From the IMG/VR virus record IMGVR_UViG_2537562020_000004: DNA of 26,889 bases; one strand, written 5' to 3'. The notes under the pieces are model-generated. The model was not told where the DNA came from and searched no databases. It worked only from the letters and a program-made list of their open reading frames with translations. Made by a program: the position numbers and the translations under genes. Every line of letters starts with the position of its first letter. Position 1 is the stretch's first letter. Shown in pieces: positions 1,612-22,691 of the stretch. Source of the stretch: a virus. Lineage: Duplodnaviria > Heunggongvirae > Uroviricota > Caudoviricetes.

Positions 1612-2094
1612 ATGATAAAGCACCTGGTAGCACCCCTGGTTTTCACCTCACTAATACTGACTGGCTGCCAGTCCCCTCAGGGAAAGTTTACTCCTGAGCA
1701 AGTCGCCGCTATGCAATCTTATGGATTTACTGAATCCGCCGGCGACTGGTCGCTGGGCTTATCAGATGCCATTCTGTTCGCAAAAAATGACTACAAATTG
1801 CTCCCGGAAAGCCAGCAACAGATCCAAACCATGGCAGCTAAATTGGCCTCGACAGGGCTAACACATGCCCGTATGGATGGACACACCGATAACTATGGTG
1901 AAGACAGTTACAACGAAGGCTTATCATTGAAACGGGCGAATGTCGTGGCCGATGCATGGGCTATGGGTGGACAAATTCCACGCAGCAATCTCACCACACA
2001 GGGTTTAGGAAAAAAATATCCCATAGCCAGTAACAAGACCGCCCAGGGCCGCGCCGAGAACCGCCGCGTCGCAGTGGTGATTACTACCCCTTAA
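1612..2094 (+). CDS. yfiB: OmpA-family outer membrane lipoprotein YfiB, 160 aa
   Basis: Signal peptide with lipobox (LILTGC), OmpA-like C-terminal domain (NRRV near C-terminus); position immediately after dgcN. Confidence 0.9.
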   Translation: MIKHLVAPLVFTSLILTGCQSPQGKFTPEQVAAMQSYGFTESAGDWSLGLSDAILFAKNDYKLLPESQQQIQTMAAKLASTGLTHARMDGHTDNYGEDSYNEGLSLKRANVVADAWAMGGQIPRSNLTTQGLGKKYPIASNKTAQGRAENRRVAVVITTP

Positions 2095-2546
2095 AACACC
2101 AGCAAACAGATAAAAAAGGGCCAGCCAATTGGCCAGCCCTTCTTAACAGGATGTCGCTTAAGCGAAATCTTAGTTAAGACGCTCCCAATAAAACCACATA
2201 AAAAACATATAATTATAATAAAAACAATTAGTTAATTTAATTTTTAATGCAGTGAATTGCAATATTCTGCAACCTCCGCCGCCACTTTGCCGCCACTTAA
2301 AGCTTTATACCACACAGACTTTAGTATACCCGAGTGAAACGCTAACACATGAGGTAGTTGGAAAATTTCCGTATATGTTGTAATATTGATACGCATTATA
2401 TGATTTTTACCTGATATAATGTAATTATTAGCTTCAAAATTATTTTTGCACGAATCAGGTATTACCAAGTAGTTGTCAGTTTTTAAAAACCCAACATCCT
2501 AAAATTAGCATTGTTTTTTAACCACAAAACATCCACGGAGAAGAAC

Positions 2547-3356
2547 GTGTCAAAAAAGGATACAATCCAGATTATCGATATCAGGATGCAGAGACCAATC
2601 ATAGCAAGAATAGAAGAAGAAAATTTAAATTTGACATTGCAAATGTCAGATAAAGCCACATTATCTGGTGCGACAGTTAGTTTTTTCACCCCAAATAACG
2701 TTTCTATATTCTTATCCTCAGCAAAAAAAGAGCTCTCAAAATCCAATTCTATATATAAAAGTCTTTTTGGAAAAATACACAAAACCAAACATAAAAACTT
2801 TAAAATTTCCGACAAAGACCTGCCGAGACTCTATAATTACTTTGAATCAATTCAGACGGCCATTATTTCTATGTATACTGCAATTGAGTCTTTTGCAAAT
2901 ATATGCATACCACATGATTATGTTTATGAAAAAAACAATGCCAAGGGAATCAAAGAATCCTATAGCAAAGAGCTAATTGAGCGATATATACCAACAAGTG
3001 AAAAAATAGATAAAATCCTACCGTCTATTTTAAATTGTGATTCGCCTAAAGGTTCAAAACTATGGCAAGATTTTAAAAGCCTTGAGTCACTTAGAAATGA
3101 CATAATTCACCCCAAGACAACAAAGAAAAACACAGAAACAAAAGAAGACTCATCTTTTTTATGCATTTTACTATCAGATGACTTTATAAAAAAAGTTTCC
3201 TGTGGATTTGATTTGGTATCTTATTTTTGCAAACAAGACACTACTCATAGTCTTTTCCCAATGGGTTTCGGTGAAATTGAACTTAAACCTGTCCCAATTA
3301 AAGCCGGTGACTTTGAAAAAGTTGATGATCATGATGAAATAGAATTACCATCATAA
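2547..3356 (+). CDS. AT-rich hypothetical protein (~270 aa) with a HEPN-like R-x4-H motif; prophage-border cargo gene
   Basis: Long ORF with strongly AT-biased codon usage unlike its neighbours; GTG start 2547 preceded by GGAG (2537-2540); motif SLRNDIIH at nt 3093-3110; followed by a hairpin. No family recognised. Confidence 0.6.
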   Translation: MSKKDTIQIIDIRMQRPIIARIEEENLNLTLQMSDKATLSGATVSFFTPNNVSIFLSSAKKELSKSNSIYKSLFGKIHKTKHKNFKISDKDLPRLYNYFESIQTAIISMYTAIESFANICIPHDYVYEKNNAKGIKESYSKELIERYIPTSEKIDKILPSILNCDSPKGSKLWQDFKSLESLRNDIIHPKTTKKNTETKEDSSFLCILLSDDFIKKVSCGFDLVSYFCKQDTTHSLFPMGFGEIELKPVPIKAGDFEKVDDHDEIELPS

Positions 3357-3369
3357 CAAAAAAACACAA

Positions 3370-3400
3370 ACCATAAAGACGGCCATAGGTGGTCTTTATG
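3370..3400. terminator. Hairpin (10 bp stem ccataaagac/gtctttatgg, 11 nt loop) between convergent genes; likely bidirectional terminator
   Basis: Perfect 10 bp inverted repeat; flanked by a T-run on the minus-strand side (rc of 3352-3369) and TTTAC on the plus side. Confidence 0.5.
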
Positions 3401-3472
3401 GTTTACAATAGACGCAGCCGTTATTAAATTTAAATCCAACAGCGTTAAAATAAACTAACAATATACGCATAA

Positions 3473-4513
3473 TTAATCTTTCCATTTAAAACCATTACAT
3501 AATGTTAAAGGATTAAATGTTACAGCCTCCTCAAGATGATCCGGGGAGAAATGTGCATACTTCATAGTTTCACGAATATTCGCATGACCGAGTATACGTT
3601 GCAGCACAAGAATATTCCCGCCATTCATCATAAAATGAGCGCCGAAGGTATGACGCAGAACGTGTGTCTTTTGCCCTTCCGTCAGTTCGATATCCGTTAG
3701 TTTGAGCATCTTTTTAAACTCCTGATAGCAAGGCTTAAACATCTTTCCCTGCCTTTCAGATAATTCGTCATACAACCATTTTGGGATCGGAACGGTTCGA
3801 TTCTTTTTCCCTTTCGTTTTGGTGAAGGTCAGTTTATGTGGCGAGAGCTGGGGACGTGTCAACCTCTCAGCCTCACCCCATCTAGCACCTGTTGCAAGAC
3901 AAATCTTAACAATCATGGTGAGGTCTTCTTTTCCGTATTGCTCGCATGCCTGAAACAATTTCGGAATTTGAGACAAAGTGAGCCAAGACATTTCTTTCTC
4001 GGCTTCCTTGAAAACACGGACTCCATCAAGTGGATTTGGTAAGCTCCACTCCCCTAGCCTTTTGAGCTCATTAAATACAGCCTCAAGATATTGTTGCTCA
4101 CGATTGACAGTTATCGGTTTAGCAATCCATTTTGCCGGGTCTTTATGATAGCCATTATCTATCTCCCCCCGAAGTCGGCGGTCACGGTAATGAGCCCAAT
4201 CTTTAGCAGTAAGGCGGGATGCAATAGGGTCACCAAGTCCATTACACACGATTTGAAGTTTAGCTAACCGCGACTTACTGGCGACCAGTGCCTGTCCGTG
4301 TAAATTATGCCAAAGCTGGATAATCTCACTTAAGCGTCGGCGGTCTTCTTTCTTGCCGAGCCACGGCTTATCCTCACTCTCACTTTTCGTAAATGCTTCG
4401 AATGCCTCGGCCTCACCTTTGGTATTGAATTGCCGACGTATACGCCGCCCTTCTCGACCATTTGGATAGAGCTCGCATAACCATTTGCCATTTTTTTGCT
4501 TACTTACAGTCAT
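3473..4513 (-). CDS. int: Phage integrase, tyrosine recombinase (346 aa)
   Basis: C-terminal catalytic region HVLRHTFGAHFMMNGGNILVLQRILGHANIRETMKYAHF typical of tyrosine recombinases (R..H..R..Y); located at the prophage end next to the repressor. Confidence 0.9.
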   Translation of the reverse strand: MTVSKQKNGKWLCELYPNGREGRRIRRQFNTKGEAEAFEAFTKSESEDKPWLGKKEDRRRLSEIIQLWHNLHGQALVASKSRLAKLQIVCNGLGDPIASRLTAKDWAHYRDRRLRGEIDNGYHKDPAKWIAKPITVNREQQYLEAVFNELKRLGEWSLPNPLDGVRVFKEAEKEMSWLTLSQIPKLFQACEQYGKEDLTMIVKICLATGARWGEAERLTRPQLSPHKLTFTKTKGKKNRTVPIPKWLYDELSERQGKMFKPCYQEFKKMLKLTDIELTEGQKTHVLRHTFGAHFMMNGGNILVLQRILGHANIRETMKYAHFSPDHLEEAVTFNPLTLCNGFKWKD

Positions 4514-4535
4514 AATGTCACCGAGGCAACTCTAA

Positions 4536-4874
4536 TTATTCCCAAAGTGCTGTTGCAGCATCCATTACAGGATCCAAAGGAATTTTTACGCCTGCATACT
4601 CCGGGCTATCTTTCCAAACAGTATCAATATTGCTCCCCTCAAGCTTTCCAGACTTTACTCCATCAATCGCAAAACCATTTAATGGGTATCGGTCATCTGT
4701 TGCTTTGTCGTACACAAAGGCATATTTACCGTTGACACAAGACACCGTAGCTTTTTCAAAAGTTAACGGCCAATCCTCACCAAACTTAGCGCCATCTAAA
4801 TCCTGTGTTTTTTCAGCGGCTGAGGCTCCAAAAGAAAGGGTAAGAAGCAGAGCTAAAAAGAGTTTACATTTCAT
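4536..4874 (-). CDS. Small secreted protein (112 aa) with N-terminal signal peptide; cargo gene between cI and int
   Basis: Start MKCKLFLALLLTLSFGASA-AEK (signal peptidase I-type site), RBS AAGGGA upstream; tightly packed between cI stop (4883) and int start (4513) on the same strand. Confidence 0.6.
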   Translation of the reverse strand: MKCKLFLALLLTLSFGASAAEKTQDLDGAKFGEDWPLTFEKATVSCVNGKYAFVYDKATDDRYPLNGFAIDGVKSGKLEGSNIDTVWKDSPEYAGVKIPLDPVMDAATALWE

Positions 4875-4882
4875 AATGTCCC

Positions 4883-5743
4883 TTACACGTGTTTTTCCAA
4901 TGTGAAAACTACAGCCCCGGCAGGAGTAATGTCTGTAATGTTGCATTCAAACTCAGCAGACTTATTTGACAACCTGACTTTTCCACCGGGCAAGCGAATT
5001 ACATCAAAAACATCAAGAGCGCCGTCGATATCAATTAACCAGCGACCATTACTTATATTCGAAGCAGAACAGTCGACAAGCCAAGAGGCAGCTACACCGT
5101 CAACAAAAATCAATTCCCCTGAGTTAGAAGGAATCATTGAGGGGTCAGGATGCCACGTTCCTGCATCCTTAAGCTCACCAGATTCAAGACGAGATTTTTT
5201 AATAGAAAAACCAGATGTGACATCTTCCCTGTTAGCTCGCATTTGCCCCTTGCCTGTTGCTAACCATTCCAGTGACGTATCGGTATCAAGAGCGCATGTA
5301 ACAACAACATCACCAGGGAAAAAATCTCGCCTTACCCATGTGCTAATTGTGCCAGAGGAAATGCCGAGCAAATCACCGAGCTCCTTTTGCATGGTAAAGC
5401 CATACGCATCAAGAATCCTACGCAAAACGGTTTTACCACCATTCGTCATAATCTCGTCATAAAGCTCTTTGCCTTTTAACTTGCAACTGGCTCGCTCGTG
5501 ATTTGCATTTGCAAGTTCTCCATTTACAAGCCAATTGATATCAGCTCCCGTGTCAAGACAACACCTAACTATGACATTGCCAGGTATTGCATCACGCTGA
5601 ACCCAGCCGCTAACGCTGTGTTTAGCGATACCTAGCAGGTCAGCCAAATCCTTTTGCATCTTGACCCCATAGGCTGACATTAAGCGTTCCAATACGCCGT
5701 TCGTTGCACTAACACGCCACTGAACATCAAGCTCAGAACTCAT
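4883..5743 (-). CDS. cI: Phage 186-type CI immunity repressor (286 aa) with tandemly duplicated N-terminal DNA-binding domain
   Basis: Two consecutive ~60 aa segments (AYGVKMQKDLADLLGIAKHSVSGWVQRDAIPGNVIVRCCLDTGADINWL and AYGFTMQKELGDLLGISSGTISTWVRRDFFPGDVVVTCALDTDTSLEWL) resembling the 186 CI N-terminal domain, plus a CI-like C-terminal domain; divergent from apl/cII. Confidence 0.85.
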   Translation of the reverse strand: MSSELDVQWRVSATNGVLERLMSAYGVKMQKDLADLLGIAKHSVSGWVQRDAIPGNVIVRCCLDTGADINWLVNGELANANHERASCKLKGKELYDEIMTNGGKTVLRRILDAYGFTMQKELGDLLGISSGTISTWVRRDFFPGDVVVTCALDTDTSLEWLATGKGQMRANREDVTSGFSIKKSRLESGELKDAGTWHPDPSMIPSNSGELIFVDGVAASWLVDCSASNISNGRWLIDIDGALDVFDVIRLPGGKVRLSNKSAEFECNITDITPAGAVVFTLEKHV

Positions 5744-5772
5744 AAAAACCCCTACAGATAATTTTATGGGTG

Positions 5773-5801
5773 TTTACAGAAAACTTTTTACGATCTATAG
5801 T
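5773..5801 (+). promoter_or_regulatory. Sigma70-like promoter (TTTACA-N17-TATAGT), candidate lytic promoter pR in the cI/apl switch region
   Basis: -35 TTTACA (5773-5778), 17 nt spacer, -10 TATAGT (5796-5801), oriented toward apl. Confidence 0.45.
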
Positions 5802-5864
5802 GGCATTCATCGACCAAGATGCACACCACTGCACTACATTTCAAACAACAGGAGATAATGCGAT

Positions 5865-6236
5865 ATGTCAGATGCAAAATCAATCTCGACGCACGACTCG
5901 CAAAACTCACAAAATCAAACTGTGCTGCTAGATCCAACACAGTTTGATGCCATCGTTACCGCCATGCTGCCAGCTCTACAGACAATGATTCGCTCCGCTA
6001 TGTCAGACACGATGACTGTGAAAGACTTCGCCGCTACTCGCGGTGTTAGCGAGCGTCTGGTCTGGCAATGGCTCGATGAGGGAGGCCTTCTCAAAGCTCC
6101 GACCAAAGACTTTTCCAACAAAGAAGAAGCTGCTAAACGAAGCCGAACCCTCGTAAACGTAAAAGCATGGCGCGATAAGCTGACTCAACAAGCGATTGAT
6201 TGTCGCTACATCGACCAGCGCACCGCTCTTAACTGA
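5865..6236 (+). CDS. apl: Apl/Cox-like HTH regulator/excisionase (123 aa as called; true start may be internal)
   Basis: Strong RBS AGGAG upstream of ATG 5865; HTH-like segment TVKDFAATRGVSERLVWQWLDEGGL; first gene of the rightward early operon opposite cI. Confidence 0.6.
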   Translation: MSDAKSISTHDSQNSQNQTVLLDPTQFDAIVTAMLPALQTMIRSAMSDTMTVKDFAATRGVSERLVWQWLDEGGLLKAPTKDFSNKEEAAKRSRTLVNVKAWRDKLTQQAIDCRYIDQRTALN

Positions 6237-11858: not shown

Positions 11859-12863
11859 CTAATTTACATGTATGTAGAGTTCACCGTCGCCAGACCAATC
11901 GGGACACTCTAAAACAAGCCCAAACTGCTTGAATATTTCATCAATGATTATTGTTATCTCCCGAAAATCACCAAAACCTGTAATGTGCTGGTCATTAAAC
12001 TTCCCATAAAGATTCTGAAAAGCAATGCCTAATTCTGATAATTGATATCTTATCTTTGAGTTGGATAGTGTAAGGGATAGCTTTGGATCGTATTCTTTAA
12101 TATTGATGTTTAGAGAATGGACATAACCCATCGCATAAGCATAAGAGTTGATGATTAGCCTGATACGTTTTTTTACTTCAAGATACATGTCATTCAGAGA
12201 AATATTACCGTACTTATAACCCCAGATGAGTTTTTCAATCTCGTCAGATACTTCATTTACAACAGTGTCAAGATTCTCTAAAAATAAATCGACAGTTTCT
12301 TGAGGGGCAGACCCCGAAGACATGTAATTAGCGAGATATTCAGACCATGCACGCGTGGCTGAGATAAGAAGCGCGCTACCATACTCGTTGACTGTAAAGT
12401 TTTGGGCTAAGCATGTTAGTAAGTTTTTTTCATGTACGTGCACTAATTCATGGTGAATGCGATGGATGACTGCGAGGTATCCTTCTTCTTTCAGTTTTAA
12501 GAAGCTACCATCATTGAAAAGCTCAACAAAAAAATCAATCGATAGCACAAGGGTATATTCTTCATATAGCCCATCATTGCCAATTTTTGTTACTAACTGC
12601 CCGACGGCTGCGCCCTGTTTGCTATTGGTAAATGAACTAGGGGATTTGTGTTGGTAAGAGGATGTTACCTTTTGAAGAGCTTCACTGAAGTTATAGGAAA
12701 CAATCACGCATTTTAATTTGGAGATATCAAGATTGAGATTCTTTGTTAAAGCTCGGATAGCTTCTAGTGTGAAATTACCGATATTATTTGCTTCTTGCTC
12801 AGTAGCGAAACCTTCGAGGGTTATTTTAAAATCAGTTTCCAAAATATTAATCTCCGCGCCCAT
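11859..12863 (-). CDS. AT-rich hypothetical protein (334 aa) with HExxH motif (HELVH); cargo gene between portal gene and cos
   Basis: Long ORF with AT-biased composition contrasting with adjacent phage genes; HRIHHELVHVHE at aa 135-146 (nt ~12438-12452); co-directional with Q/P. Confidence 0.7.
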   Translation of the reverse strand: MGAEINILETDFKITLEGFATEQEANNIGNFTLEAIRALTKNLNLDISKLKCVIVSYNFSEALQKVTSSYQHKSPSSFTNSKQGAAVGQLVTKIGNDGLYEEYTLVLSIDFFVELFNDGSFLKLKEEGYLAVIHRIHHELVHVHEKNLLTCLAQNFTVNEYGSALLISATRAWSEYLANYMSSGSAPQETVDLFLENLDTVVNEVSDEIEKLIWGYKYGNISLNDMYLEVKKRIRLIINSYAYAMGYVHSLNINIKEYDPKLSLTLSNSKIRYQLSELGIAFQNLYGKFNDQHITGFGDFREITIIIDEIFKQFGLVLECPDWSGDGELYIHVN

Positions 12864-21815: not shown

Positions 21816-22691
21816 CTAGCCTCGTAAATATCGTTTAGTAAATTTCGTGTTTGGTCTGGATGATAGGATTTGTCTTTCTATTTCACTATCACAGTCTATA
21901 TAGTCTAGTGTATTAGCTTCTATAAGTTTGTTCACGTCAATATTTTTTGCATCGATTATGTTGGCATTTCTAAGGTTTGCATTGGTGTATTCCACTTTAT
22001 CCAAATCACACTCTCTGAGTACGCAACTTTTCATTTCCGCATTGGAAAAATCCCCACCATATAAATAGCAGCCTTCAAAAATAACACCGTTTAACTTTGA
22101 ATCCTGAGCTTTAATATTTTTTATTTTACACTTTATAAATTTTACGTTTTTCATTTTGCTCTTGCTAATATTTAATGCCTGGATTGTACATCCAGTGAAA
22201 GAACAGTCTCTTATGTTAGATTTTTCCATATTTAACCCAGATAGTTCTGAGGTTTTAAAGTGTAAGTATTTAATGGTAAAAAGGTCACCCAACTCCATTC
22301 TGGGTATGTCTATATTGAAGACACCTTTATTGTTGAGCTGTCTTATTATTTTTATTTTTTGTATTTTCAAATCAACATTAACGTGCTTAGCTAAGTTTCC
22401 CAAATCCTCAAGAAGTTCATTAATCGTTTCTTTGTTTTGTCTTCTGTATTCAAAGTAATAAAGGATGACACCTAATACAAAAAAATCCAAAATGGATGAA
22501 TTTGCATTTATTAGGAACCCAGACAGGAATGAATCATTGTAATTACCATAGTGTATAGAGGCAAGTGTTACGCCAAATGCATATAAAATAAAAATAATAA
22601 ACACGTGCTTCATTTTGCATAAGGATTGTATTATTGGTTTTATGGCATCAATTTTGTTCATTGCTGCAGCAGCGAAAGATTTAAAAGTCAT
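21816..22691 (-). CDS. AT-rich membrane protein (291 aa) with two N-terminal TM helices and C-terminal pentapeptide repeats; cargo gene between S and V
   Basis: AT-biased ORF antiparallel to the tail genes; hydrophobic segments HVFIIFILYAFGVTLASI and ILDFFVLGVILYYF; ~14 consecutive 5-residue repeats with central hydrophobic residue (SKMKN VKFIK CKIKN ... ANLRN ANIID). Confidence 0.7.
   Translation of the reverse strand: MTFKSFAAAAMNKIDAIKPIIQSLCKMKHVFIIFILYAFGVTLASIHYGNYNDSFLSGFLINANSSILDFFVLGVILYYFEYRRQNKETINELLEDLGNLAKHVNVDLKIQKIKIIRQLNNKGVFNIDIPRMELGDLFTIKYLHFKTSELSGLNMEKSNIRDCSFTGCTIQALNISKSKMKNVKFIKCKIKNIKAQDSKLNGVIFEGCYLYGGDFSNAEMKSCVLRECDLDKVEYTNANLRNANIIDAKNIDVNKLIEANTLDYIDCDSEIERQILSSRPNTKFTKRYLRG

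Follow-up and report, generated by a model that had tools for sequence, protein, structure and literature searches.

A candidate abortive-infection gene encoding a predicted solo HEPN RNase at the att-int junction of a 186/P2-like Escherichia coli prophage

Sargen et al. (Nature 2026, PMC13043305) describe HepS (STM14_3211), encoded by the Salmonella prophage Gifsy-1, as a 'HEPN solo' protein that acts by abortive infection. It forms a tetramer and carries the motif R100-H105, and its homologues are shorter than 250 aa (PMC13043305). ApeA (Gao et al. 2020), of ~580 aa, has N-terminal, Mid and C-terminal HEPN domains and assembles into decamers or dodecamers (bioRxiv 10.64898/2026.01.26.701840), while DARNA/PD-T7-3 joins an N-terminal HEPN domain (R117-H122) to a 300-aa helical C-domain (bioRxiv 10.64898/2026.02.22.705581). 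The classical single-gene HEPN Abi proteins are AbiD/F, AbiJ, AbiU2 and AbiV (PMC3710099). Here we describe a gene in a stretch of 26,889 nucleotides (IMG/VR virus record IMGVR_UViG_2537562020_000004; hereafter the window), the left end of which is Escherichia coli dgcN (yfiN) and yfiB, with a 186/P2-like prophage from ~2.2 kb onward. The gene lies between yfiB (stop at 2094) and the prophage integrase gene, int (stop at 3473), and its product, WP_001394629.1, is labelled 'hypothetical protein' in RefSeq. On the precedent of the solo HEPN abortive-infection tRNases HepS, ApeA and DARNA, we propose that it is a prophage cargo gene, or 'moron', encoding a stand-alone HEPN abortive-infection RNase; we put the probability of this reading at roughly 0.55.

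As with HepS, the gene appears to encode a single HEPN protein with a canonical R-x4-H motif, in an accessory slot of a prophage and with no partner or inhibitor gene. Across families such proteins are often prophage-borne, and the same logic might be expected of both, namely a tRNase that is inactive at rest and triggered by phage. The present protein differs from HepS in its length of 269 aa, in the position of its motif (183-188), in an extra N-terminal beta region and in a large insert between helices 2 and 3; it is carried by a P2-like phage, whereas HepS is carried by a lambdoid one. A search for HepS homology gave no PDB sequence match at E <= 10 and no HepS-labelled fold match, the presence of a HepS entry in the libraries searched being unconfirmed. 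With ApeA it would share single-protein HEPN defence and a core with insertions, and the closest structural match of ApeA is also HepT (5YEP/7AE8); however, the protein has no PADLOC ApeA or Pfam HEPN_Apea match, and the N-terminal parts are unrelated. DARNA and the Abi proteins combine a HEPN RNase and a non-catalytic region in one polypeptide and act by abortive infection, an arrangement that the protein may resemble. Judged from their preprint descriptions, the architectures of ApeA and DARNA differ from that found here. HepT (SO_3166, PDB 5YEP/7BXO; 7AE2) consists of a minimal domain (~130 aa), which the MNT nucleotidyltransferase encoded next to it neutralises, whereas the present protein is twice as long, has extra regions and is encoded with no adjacent MNT gene.

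The features that define HEPN domains were taken from Anantharaman et al. 2013 (PMC3710099). They are an R-x4-6-H motif, a polar residue after the R (mostly N, D or H) and an acidic residue in helix 2, typically within E-x3-[KR]; an insert separates helices 2 and 3, and the motif lies at the end of helix 3 (PMC3710099). A first-pass annotation, made by a model from the sequence alone, had placed a motif of this kind at nt 3093-3110, and RNDIIH is indeed encoded there. Its numbering, R195 and H200, picked out the right residues but counted them from TTG 2511; from the GTG start they are R183 and H188. The motif is conserved among homologues: R183 was present in 156/156 aligned family members and H188 in 153/155 (99%), and both residues were invariant in family alignments A1 and A3. 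At position 184, N was found in 117 (75%), D in 22 (14%) and H in 14 (9%) of the 156 members, so that these three residues together account for 98%. Two further elements are strongly conserved (Table 1). D11 and R13, in the N-terminal beta region, are candidates for a sensor or for a contribution to the active site, and E114-N118, in predicted helix 2, appears by sequence to stand where HEPN domains have their second conserved acidic residue.

An AlphaFold2 model built on a 75-sequence alignment (predicted local distance difference test score 86, predicted template modelling score 0.84) has a four-stranded N-terminal beta region (18-47), followed by helix 1 (51-74) and helix 2 (89-120). An insert at 121-170, carrying K141, E145, R146 and K153, separates helix 2 from helix 3 (171-187). 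Helix 3 has R183 in its final turn, and H188 opens the loop that follows; after this come a beta hairpin and helix 4 (213-228). A HEPN-like fold is predicted: the model shares with the described HEPN topology its four-helix core, the insert that parts helix 2 from helix 3 and the motif with which helix 3 ends. When the model was searched with Foldseek, the top match, and the sole one of high probability (0.98), was the HEPN/MNT toxin 7bxo_F, at an E-value of 0.099. The structural case for HEPN, as modelled, is suggestive and not statistically strong.

Profile scans pointed in the same direction. Eighty family members were scanned individually against PADLOC and Pfam, and all matches were sub-threshold. 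In PADLOC, RTasHEPN was matched by 19/80 members and CARF_HEPN by 8/80, with single matches to Csx1 and Cas13a; the best match of the E. coli protein itself was RTasHEPN (E = 1.2e-4, 20 bits). In Pfam, the matches were to HEPN_RiboL-PSP (17/80), HEPN_Cthe2314 (14/80), DUF3644 (12/80), which is a HEPN family (PMC3710099), HEPN_Apea (4/80), HEPN_Swt1 (3/80) and, weakly, HEPN_AbiV (1/80). These weak matches converge on at least 8 HEPN families, and one family member is named 'Apea-like HEPN domain-containing protein' in UniRef. Neither the query nor the 80 members matched the PADLOC PD-T7-3 or Abi models, and ApeA, DARNA (PD-T7-3), PD-T4-2 and other catalogued single-gene HEPN models were absent from their listed PADLOC matches. 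The protein likewise fits none of the P4 systems to which PMC13586616 gives new names: Crouga, Bandua, Aernus, Toga, Reve and Hailong. We conclude that the protein is very probably a member of the HEPN superfamily that forms a family of its own, outside every characterised HEPN family.

That family is large, and the initial description of the gene as an orphan with no recognisable family has to be abandoned. PHROG 17113 matched at E = 1e-180, residues 14-269 aligning to profile positions 1-256 of 256, and a match to Pfam PF27216 'YopA_C' is on record for an identical protein (P0001) and for orthologues; the latter is a precomputed annotation. Local Pfam and NCBIfam profiles gave no match to the query (Pfam at E <= 10). 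YopA_C is named after the Bacillus subtilis SPbeta prophage protein YopA (Pfam PF27216). Literature searches for PF27216/YopA_C, for YopA with SPbeta or HEPN, for phrog_17113 and for WP_001394629 returned nothing relevant. An exhaustive profile search recovered 1,070 representatives of 50%-identity clusters at E <= 1e-3, 665 of them at E <= 1e-10; a word-indexed search recovered only 15 clusters. The family has two forms: a stand-alone form of ~260-280 aa, to which the E. coli protein belongs, and a form of ~390-490 aa with the same module at its C-terminus and an unannotated N-terminal extension, in which no Pfam or PADLOC domain was found. Both Proteobacteria and Bacteroidota contain members. 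One homologue of 282 aa (P0010), which bears the label 'MAG: Vagococcus sp.', resembles a Providencia prophage protein of the same length (P0012), each being 58% identical to the query; we suspect that the label reflects a binning error and not a Firmicute gene.

The reading frame was delimited as follows. The automatic ORF (open reading frame) list begins the ORF upstream, at TTG 2511 (281 aa). The start is fixed at GTG 2547 by a GGAG sequence 7 nt upstream, by conservation of this start in the Klebsiella, Serratia and Morganella orthologues, and by the position of D11 and R13 upstream of the next ATG. That ATG, at 2586, where the PHROG profile begins, was rejected as a start because it would leave out the invariant D11 and R13 and because the GTG and its Shine-Dalgarno sequence are conserved. 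The first-pass coordinates of the ORF (2547-3356) therefore stand, while its length of 270 codons becomes 269 codons plus stop. The ORF had also been said to end in a hairpin, and a 13-bp perfect stem was found at 3368-3404, between the ORF and the convergent int. Its folding energy is -22.4 kcal/mol (z = -5.7; 0/200 shuffles fold as well), and it is likely to be a terminator. Among orthologues from four enterobacterial genera dN/dS was 0.03-0.08; the gene is under strong purifying selection.

The first-pass annotation described the interval between yfiB and the integrase as AT-rich and occupied by one ORF. This agrees with a GC content of 0.31-0.36 over 2100-3600, as compared with ~0.45-0.53 on either flank, and with one credible ORF. 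In sister prophages that share this integration site, attL is followed immediately by int. Window positions 2001-2295 align to positions 4002-4298 of one such sister (L004), and 3506-4993 to positions 4310-5800, so that window positions 2295 and 3506 correspond to L004 4298 and 4310, which are 11 bp apart. Because the sister junction is uninterrupted, the ORF must lie on a 1.21-kb insertion, which starts just past a GCCGCCACTTT x2 repeat. The insertion was found in 19/5,426 complete E. coli genomes and the uninterrupted junction in 47. The inserted segment also supplies the end of int: the integrase and its sister counterpart agree at 94% of positions for 341 aa and diverge beyond. The Int C-terminus here, ...LTLCNGFKWKD, unlike that of the sisters, comes from the inserted AT-rich segment (the last ~11 codons, 3473-3505, minus strand). 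In sister phages the 3' end of int overlaps the GCCGCCACTTT arm repeats; here the end of int and the repeats are 1.2 kb apart.

The same arrangement was found outside E. coli. A Klebsiella variicola prophage is collinear with window positions 2108-6000 at 75% nucleotide identity, through core, arm repeat, upstream region, ORF and int, which indicates that the att-int arrangement is of long standing and moves together with the phage. This gene also stands at the start of IMG/VR viral contigs of ~32 kb. That it might be an ordinary host gene was ruled out: in K-12 no more than a 75-bp spacer, without the gene, separates yfiB from the convergent rplS, and the gene is present in just 19/5,426 genomes. 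Its absence from prophage-free strains and from the 47 sister prophages that occupy this att site identifies it as prophage cargo at the att-int junction, as had been surmised. The ORF (2547-3356) lies between attL (2174-2186) and int (3473-4513); the gene is present at 19 such junctions and absent from 47 that are similar in other respects. The att-int interval of P2-like phages is a minor defence hotspot that holds 3% of P2 systems (2026 survey, PMC13586616).

Comparison with the uninterrupted region downstream of yfiB defined the attachment site and placed the gene within the prophage. From yfiB as far as ...TTAGTTAAGACGCTC (2172-2186) the window matches K-12 exactly; it diverges afterwards. 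Strain JKHS016 is 100% identical across the query region, and its prophage spans the interval from yfiB to rplS; the 13-bp AGTTAAGACGCTC is found again in this strain at the end of an intact rplS beyond the prophage (attR, L003 7455-7470). The point of divergence from K-12 and the duplicate of AGTTAAGACGCTC at intact rplS indicate integration into the 3' end of rplS, with the ORF inside the prophage. Of the two intervals to which attL had earlier been assigned (2095-2546 or 3357-3472), it is the first that contains it. In the rebuilt rplS at attR of JKHS016 a phage-supplied TGA replaces the TAA stop, and the stop codon is the sole change. The target, rplS, is an essential ribosomal protein gene, and the identical site is used in Klebsiella variicola. 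The earlier remark that no tRNA lies in the interval holds for the entire window, in which no tRNA gene was detected; an att site at a tRNA was ruled out on this ground and by the location of the site at the rplS 3' end. The alignment of 2001-2295 to sister prophages is 91-93% identical. Within the P' arm, at 2278-2298, lies the 11-bp direct repeat GCCGCCACTTT x2, and a related repeated motif, ATGGCGGCA, occurs near attR; we infer that the GCCGCCACTTT x2 repeat is an integrase arm-type site. The phage record vB_EcoM-613R3 was dropped as independent evidence for attP, since the record was excerpted from a prophage and contains the host genes dgcN and yfiB.

Table 1. Features of the locus, with window coordinates, and elements that carry homologues.
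Feature	Location	Strand	Remarks
attL core AGTTAAGACGCTC	2174..2186	.	copy, at left prophage end, of the final rplS codons and part of the rplS stop
P' arm of phage attachment site	2187..2295	.	common to sister prophages
AT-rich cargo insertion, 1.21 kb, relative to sister prophages	2296..3505	.	holds ORF, upstream region, terminator and last ~11 int codons; GC 0.31-0.35
Shine-Dalgarno GGAG	2536..2539	+	7 nt 5' of GTG; kept in Klebsiella and Serratia
Coding sequence, 269 aa, predicted solo HEPN RNase of YopA_C / PHROG 17113 family, WP_001394629.1	2547..3356	+	GTG start, TAA stop
D11-I12-R13 codons, N-terminal beta region	2577..2585	+	D11 94%, R13 100% of 146 aligned members
E114-N118 codons (E-x3-N), predicted helix 2	2886..2900	+	E114 99%, N118 100% conserved
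R183-N-D-I-I-H188, R-x4-H catalytic signature of HEPN RNases	3093..3110	+	end of helix 171-187
Hairpin between convergent ORF and int	3368..3404	.	13-bp perfect arms, 3368-3380 and 3392-3404
Tyrosine integrase of prophage	3473..4513	-	C-terminus (3473-3505) encoded by inserted segment; sister comparison and junction mapping
Klebsiella variicola 186-like prophage	att-int slot		solitary homologue
P4-like satellite of Serratia marcescens (protein 84% identical)	delta/psu-int slot		L006 8001-8810 vs window 2547-3356
Providencia lambdoid prophage	between antiterminator Q and holin		
Morganella island	beside RelA_SpoT-like gene pair and integrase fragment		
Bacteroides CTnDOT-like integrative and conjugative element	just after traQ, near ardA		
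Flavobacteriaceae integrative and conjugative element	beside type IV coupling protein		
Long form of family	adjoining IS110 and parA		
Acinetobacter pittii 8-kb OXA-72 plasmid	accessory gene		

Homologues are carried by many kinds of mobile element (Table 1). The slot occupied in the Serratia P4-like satellite is the classical P4 defence hotspot (Rousset et al. 2022). DNA similarity between the E. coli and Serratia loci is limited to the coding sequence and ribosome-binding site (2537-3356, 78%). All-against-all BLAST of ORFs within 3.5 kb at 65 loci revealed no recurrent partner gene or antitoxin; the recurrent neighbours were only shared backbones of integrative and conjugative elements (ICEs), or of chromosomes, in closely related genomes. 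No tandem-repeat RNA antitoxin or Rfam match was found next to the gene, and the sole upstream repeat is the 11-bp x2 arm-type repeat, which is also present in cargo-free sister phages. The gene is a single-gene unit, a solitary cargo on many kinds of mobile element. In a 2026 survey, P2 and P4 were found almost never to exchange defence genes, by a criterion of >85% identity (PMC13586616). The 84% Serratia-P4/E. coli-P2 pair falls just below that cut-off, and is a possible example of the sharing of a candidate defence gene between P2 and P4. Gut metagenome contigs (L084-L087, 6001-6828) carry a 275-aa member whose place in CTnDOT-like conjugative transposons is constant: it follows traQ and has ardA, radC and an ORF6N gene nearby. 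Metagenomes contain this member very commonly (it is listed in 135 index blocks).

By analogy with HepS, ApeA and DARNA, the protein would be made in the lysogen and would rest as an inactive oligomer, with R-x4-H motifs paired across the dimer interface. A cue of foreign phage infection would activate it, through candidate sensing or gating regions that could be the N-terminal beta region, which holds D11-x-R13 and the family-invariant P49-N50, or the C-terminal tail (P238). The activated protein would cut cellular RNA in a metal-independent manner, most likely at tRNA anticodon loops. Translation would then stop and the infection would be aborted, protecting the lysogen population and hence the prophage. 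A broader proposal is more tentative, and we hold it at a little under even odds: that the family, which numbers over 1,000 clusters at 50% identity, consists of self-contained HEPN immune nucleases in which the N-terminal D-x-R / P-N region is a new kind of infection sensor, shared by P2-like phages, P4-like satellites, lambdoid phages, ICEs and plasmids. On this proposal the E. coli protein would be the first representative of the family to be recognised, the family would be unusually promiscuous, and the gene would count among the rare defence genes that P2 and P4 have in common.

Several observations weigh against the abortive-infection reading. In helix 2 the sequence is E-x3-N, with an invariant N118, instead of the usual E-x3-[KR], and the Foldseek match has an E-value of 0.099. 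No PDB sequence was matched at E <= 10, whether by the single sequence or by an 80-sequence profile, and neither the query nor any of the members scanned reached the curated or gathering threshold of a HEPN or defence profile. No homologue was detected by tblastn in 50,697 deposited phage genomes. A promoter scan gave no plus-strand match upstream of the ORF and none that was convincing; matches within AT-rich coding DNA are uninformative. The AT-rich cargo DNA may be silenced. Finally, the proximity of the family member to the anti-restriction gene ardA in CTnDOT-like ICEs also fits anti-defence or competition between elements. The corresponding alternative is that the protein is a counter-defence or inter-element competition nuclease that acts during establishment, for example by degrading cyclic-oligonucleotide signals or the RNAs of the host or of a rival. 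Its position after the tra operon in Bacteroides CTnDOT-like ICEs and its presence on ICEs and plasmids besides phages would suit such a role, and some HEPN domains deplete cyclic oligoadenylate signals (bioRxiv 10.64898/2026.02.22.705581). However, the slots occupied in phages and satellites (P4 psu-int, P2 att-int and the lambdoid Q-lysis region) are defence cargo sites, and no characterised HEPN anti-defence protein resembles the query. We regard this role as improbable.

A toxin of an addiction or toxin-antitoxin system that stabilises the prophage is unlikely too, if a shade less so. The closest structural matches are the HepT toxins of HEPN/MNT pairs, a HipA gene adjoins one homologue, and a YafO toxin is encoded on the plasmid that bears another. 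The RNase would then be restrained by an antitoxin and would not serve as a phage sensor. The antitoxin would have to be an unrecognised small protein, an RNA or a self-modification, yet the ORF stands alone between attL and int, with neither an MNT antitoxin gene, as in HepT-MntA pairs, nor any other gene adjacent. There is no conserved neighbour at the 65 loci or in the tables of called genes, and homology between elements is confined to the coding sequence. Upstream of the gene there is no tandem-repeat antitoxin RNA of the type III toxin-antitoxin or AbiF-like kind, nor is there an Rfam match. Least probable of all is that the protein is a HEPN-like housekeeping factor of the phage, with or without catalytic activity, concerned with RNA processing or with regulation of int or lysogeny, or a helical protein other than HEPN in which R-x4-H has another role. 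The 47 sister prophages function without the gene, the same gene is found in unrelated types of element with no shared regulatory partners, and the convergent HEPN profile matches and the exact HEPN motif grammar argue against a non-HEPN protein.

If the reading as a stand-alone HEPN abortive-infection RNase is true, the protein represents a new family within a well-known kind, the solo HEPN abortive-infection nucleases, and not a new kind. A new and widespread family would join HepS, ApeA and DARNA, with a compact 269-aa E. coli example that is tractable, and PF27216/YopA_C and PHROG 17113 would gain a function. It would also support the att-int slot of P2-like phages as a real defence hotspot, and would provide a concrete case of one defence gene in both a P2-like helper lineage and a P4-like satellite. 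What would be learned is the trigger and the RNA target, not the general principle, which is already known; the value of the candidate lies in the size and mobility of its family and in its trigger, and a specialist would rate it as good but unsurprising.

Besides the cargo gene, the prophage carries int, a DUF2511 lipoprotein, cI, cII, fil, the gpA replication endonuclease and genes for portal, terminase, capsid, lysis and tail. Between int and cI, at 4536-4874 on the minus strand, a DUF2511/YebY-like protein of 112 aa with a signal-peptide-like N-terminus is encoded. This gene is kept in sister prophages, which assigns it to the phage backbone and not to variable cargo. An ORF of 327-334 aa at 11859-12863 (minus strand) adjoins the portal gene gpQ and has no Pfam or PADLOC match. 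The gpA-gpQ interval is a classical defence hotspot of P2-like phages, in which P2 carries old and tin, and the ORF may be a second uncharacterised cargo gene of the same prophage. At 21816-22691 (minus strand) a 291-aa pentapeptide-repeat protein is encoded (Pfam Pentapeptide_4, E = 3.9e-19; no PADLOC match), in an accessory slot among the tail genes and on the opposite strand, between a virion-morphogenesis (gpS-like) gene and the baseplate gene gpV. The recently described Hailong system includes pentapeptide-repeat proteins (PMC13586616).

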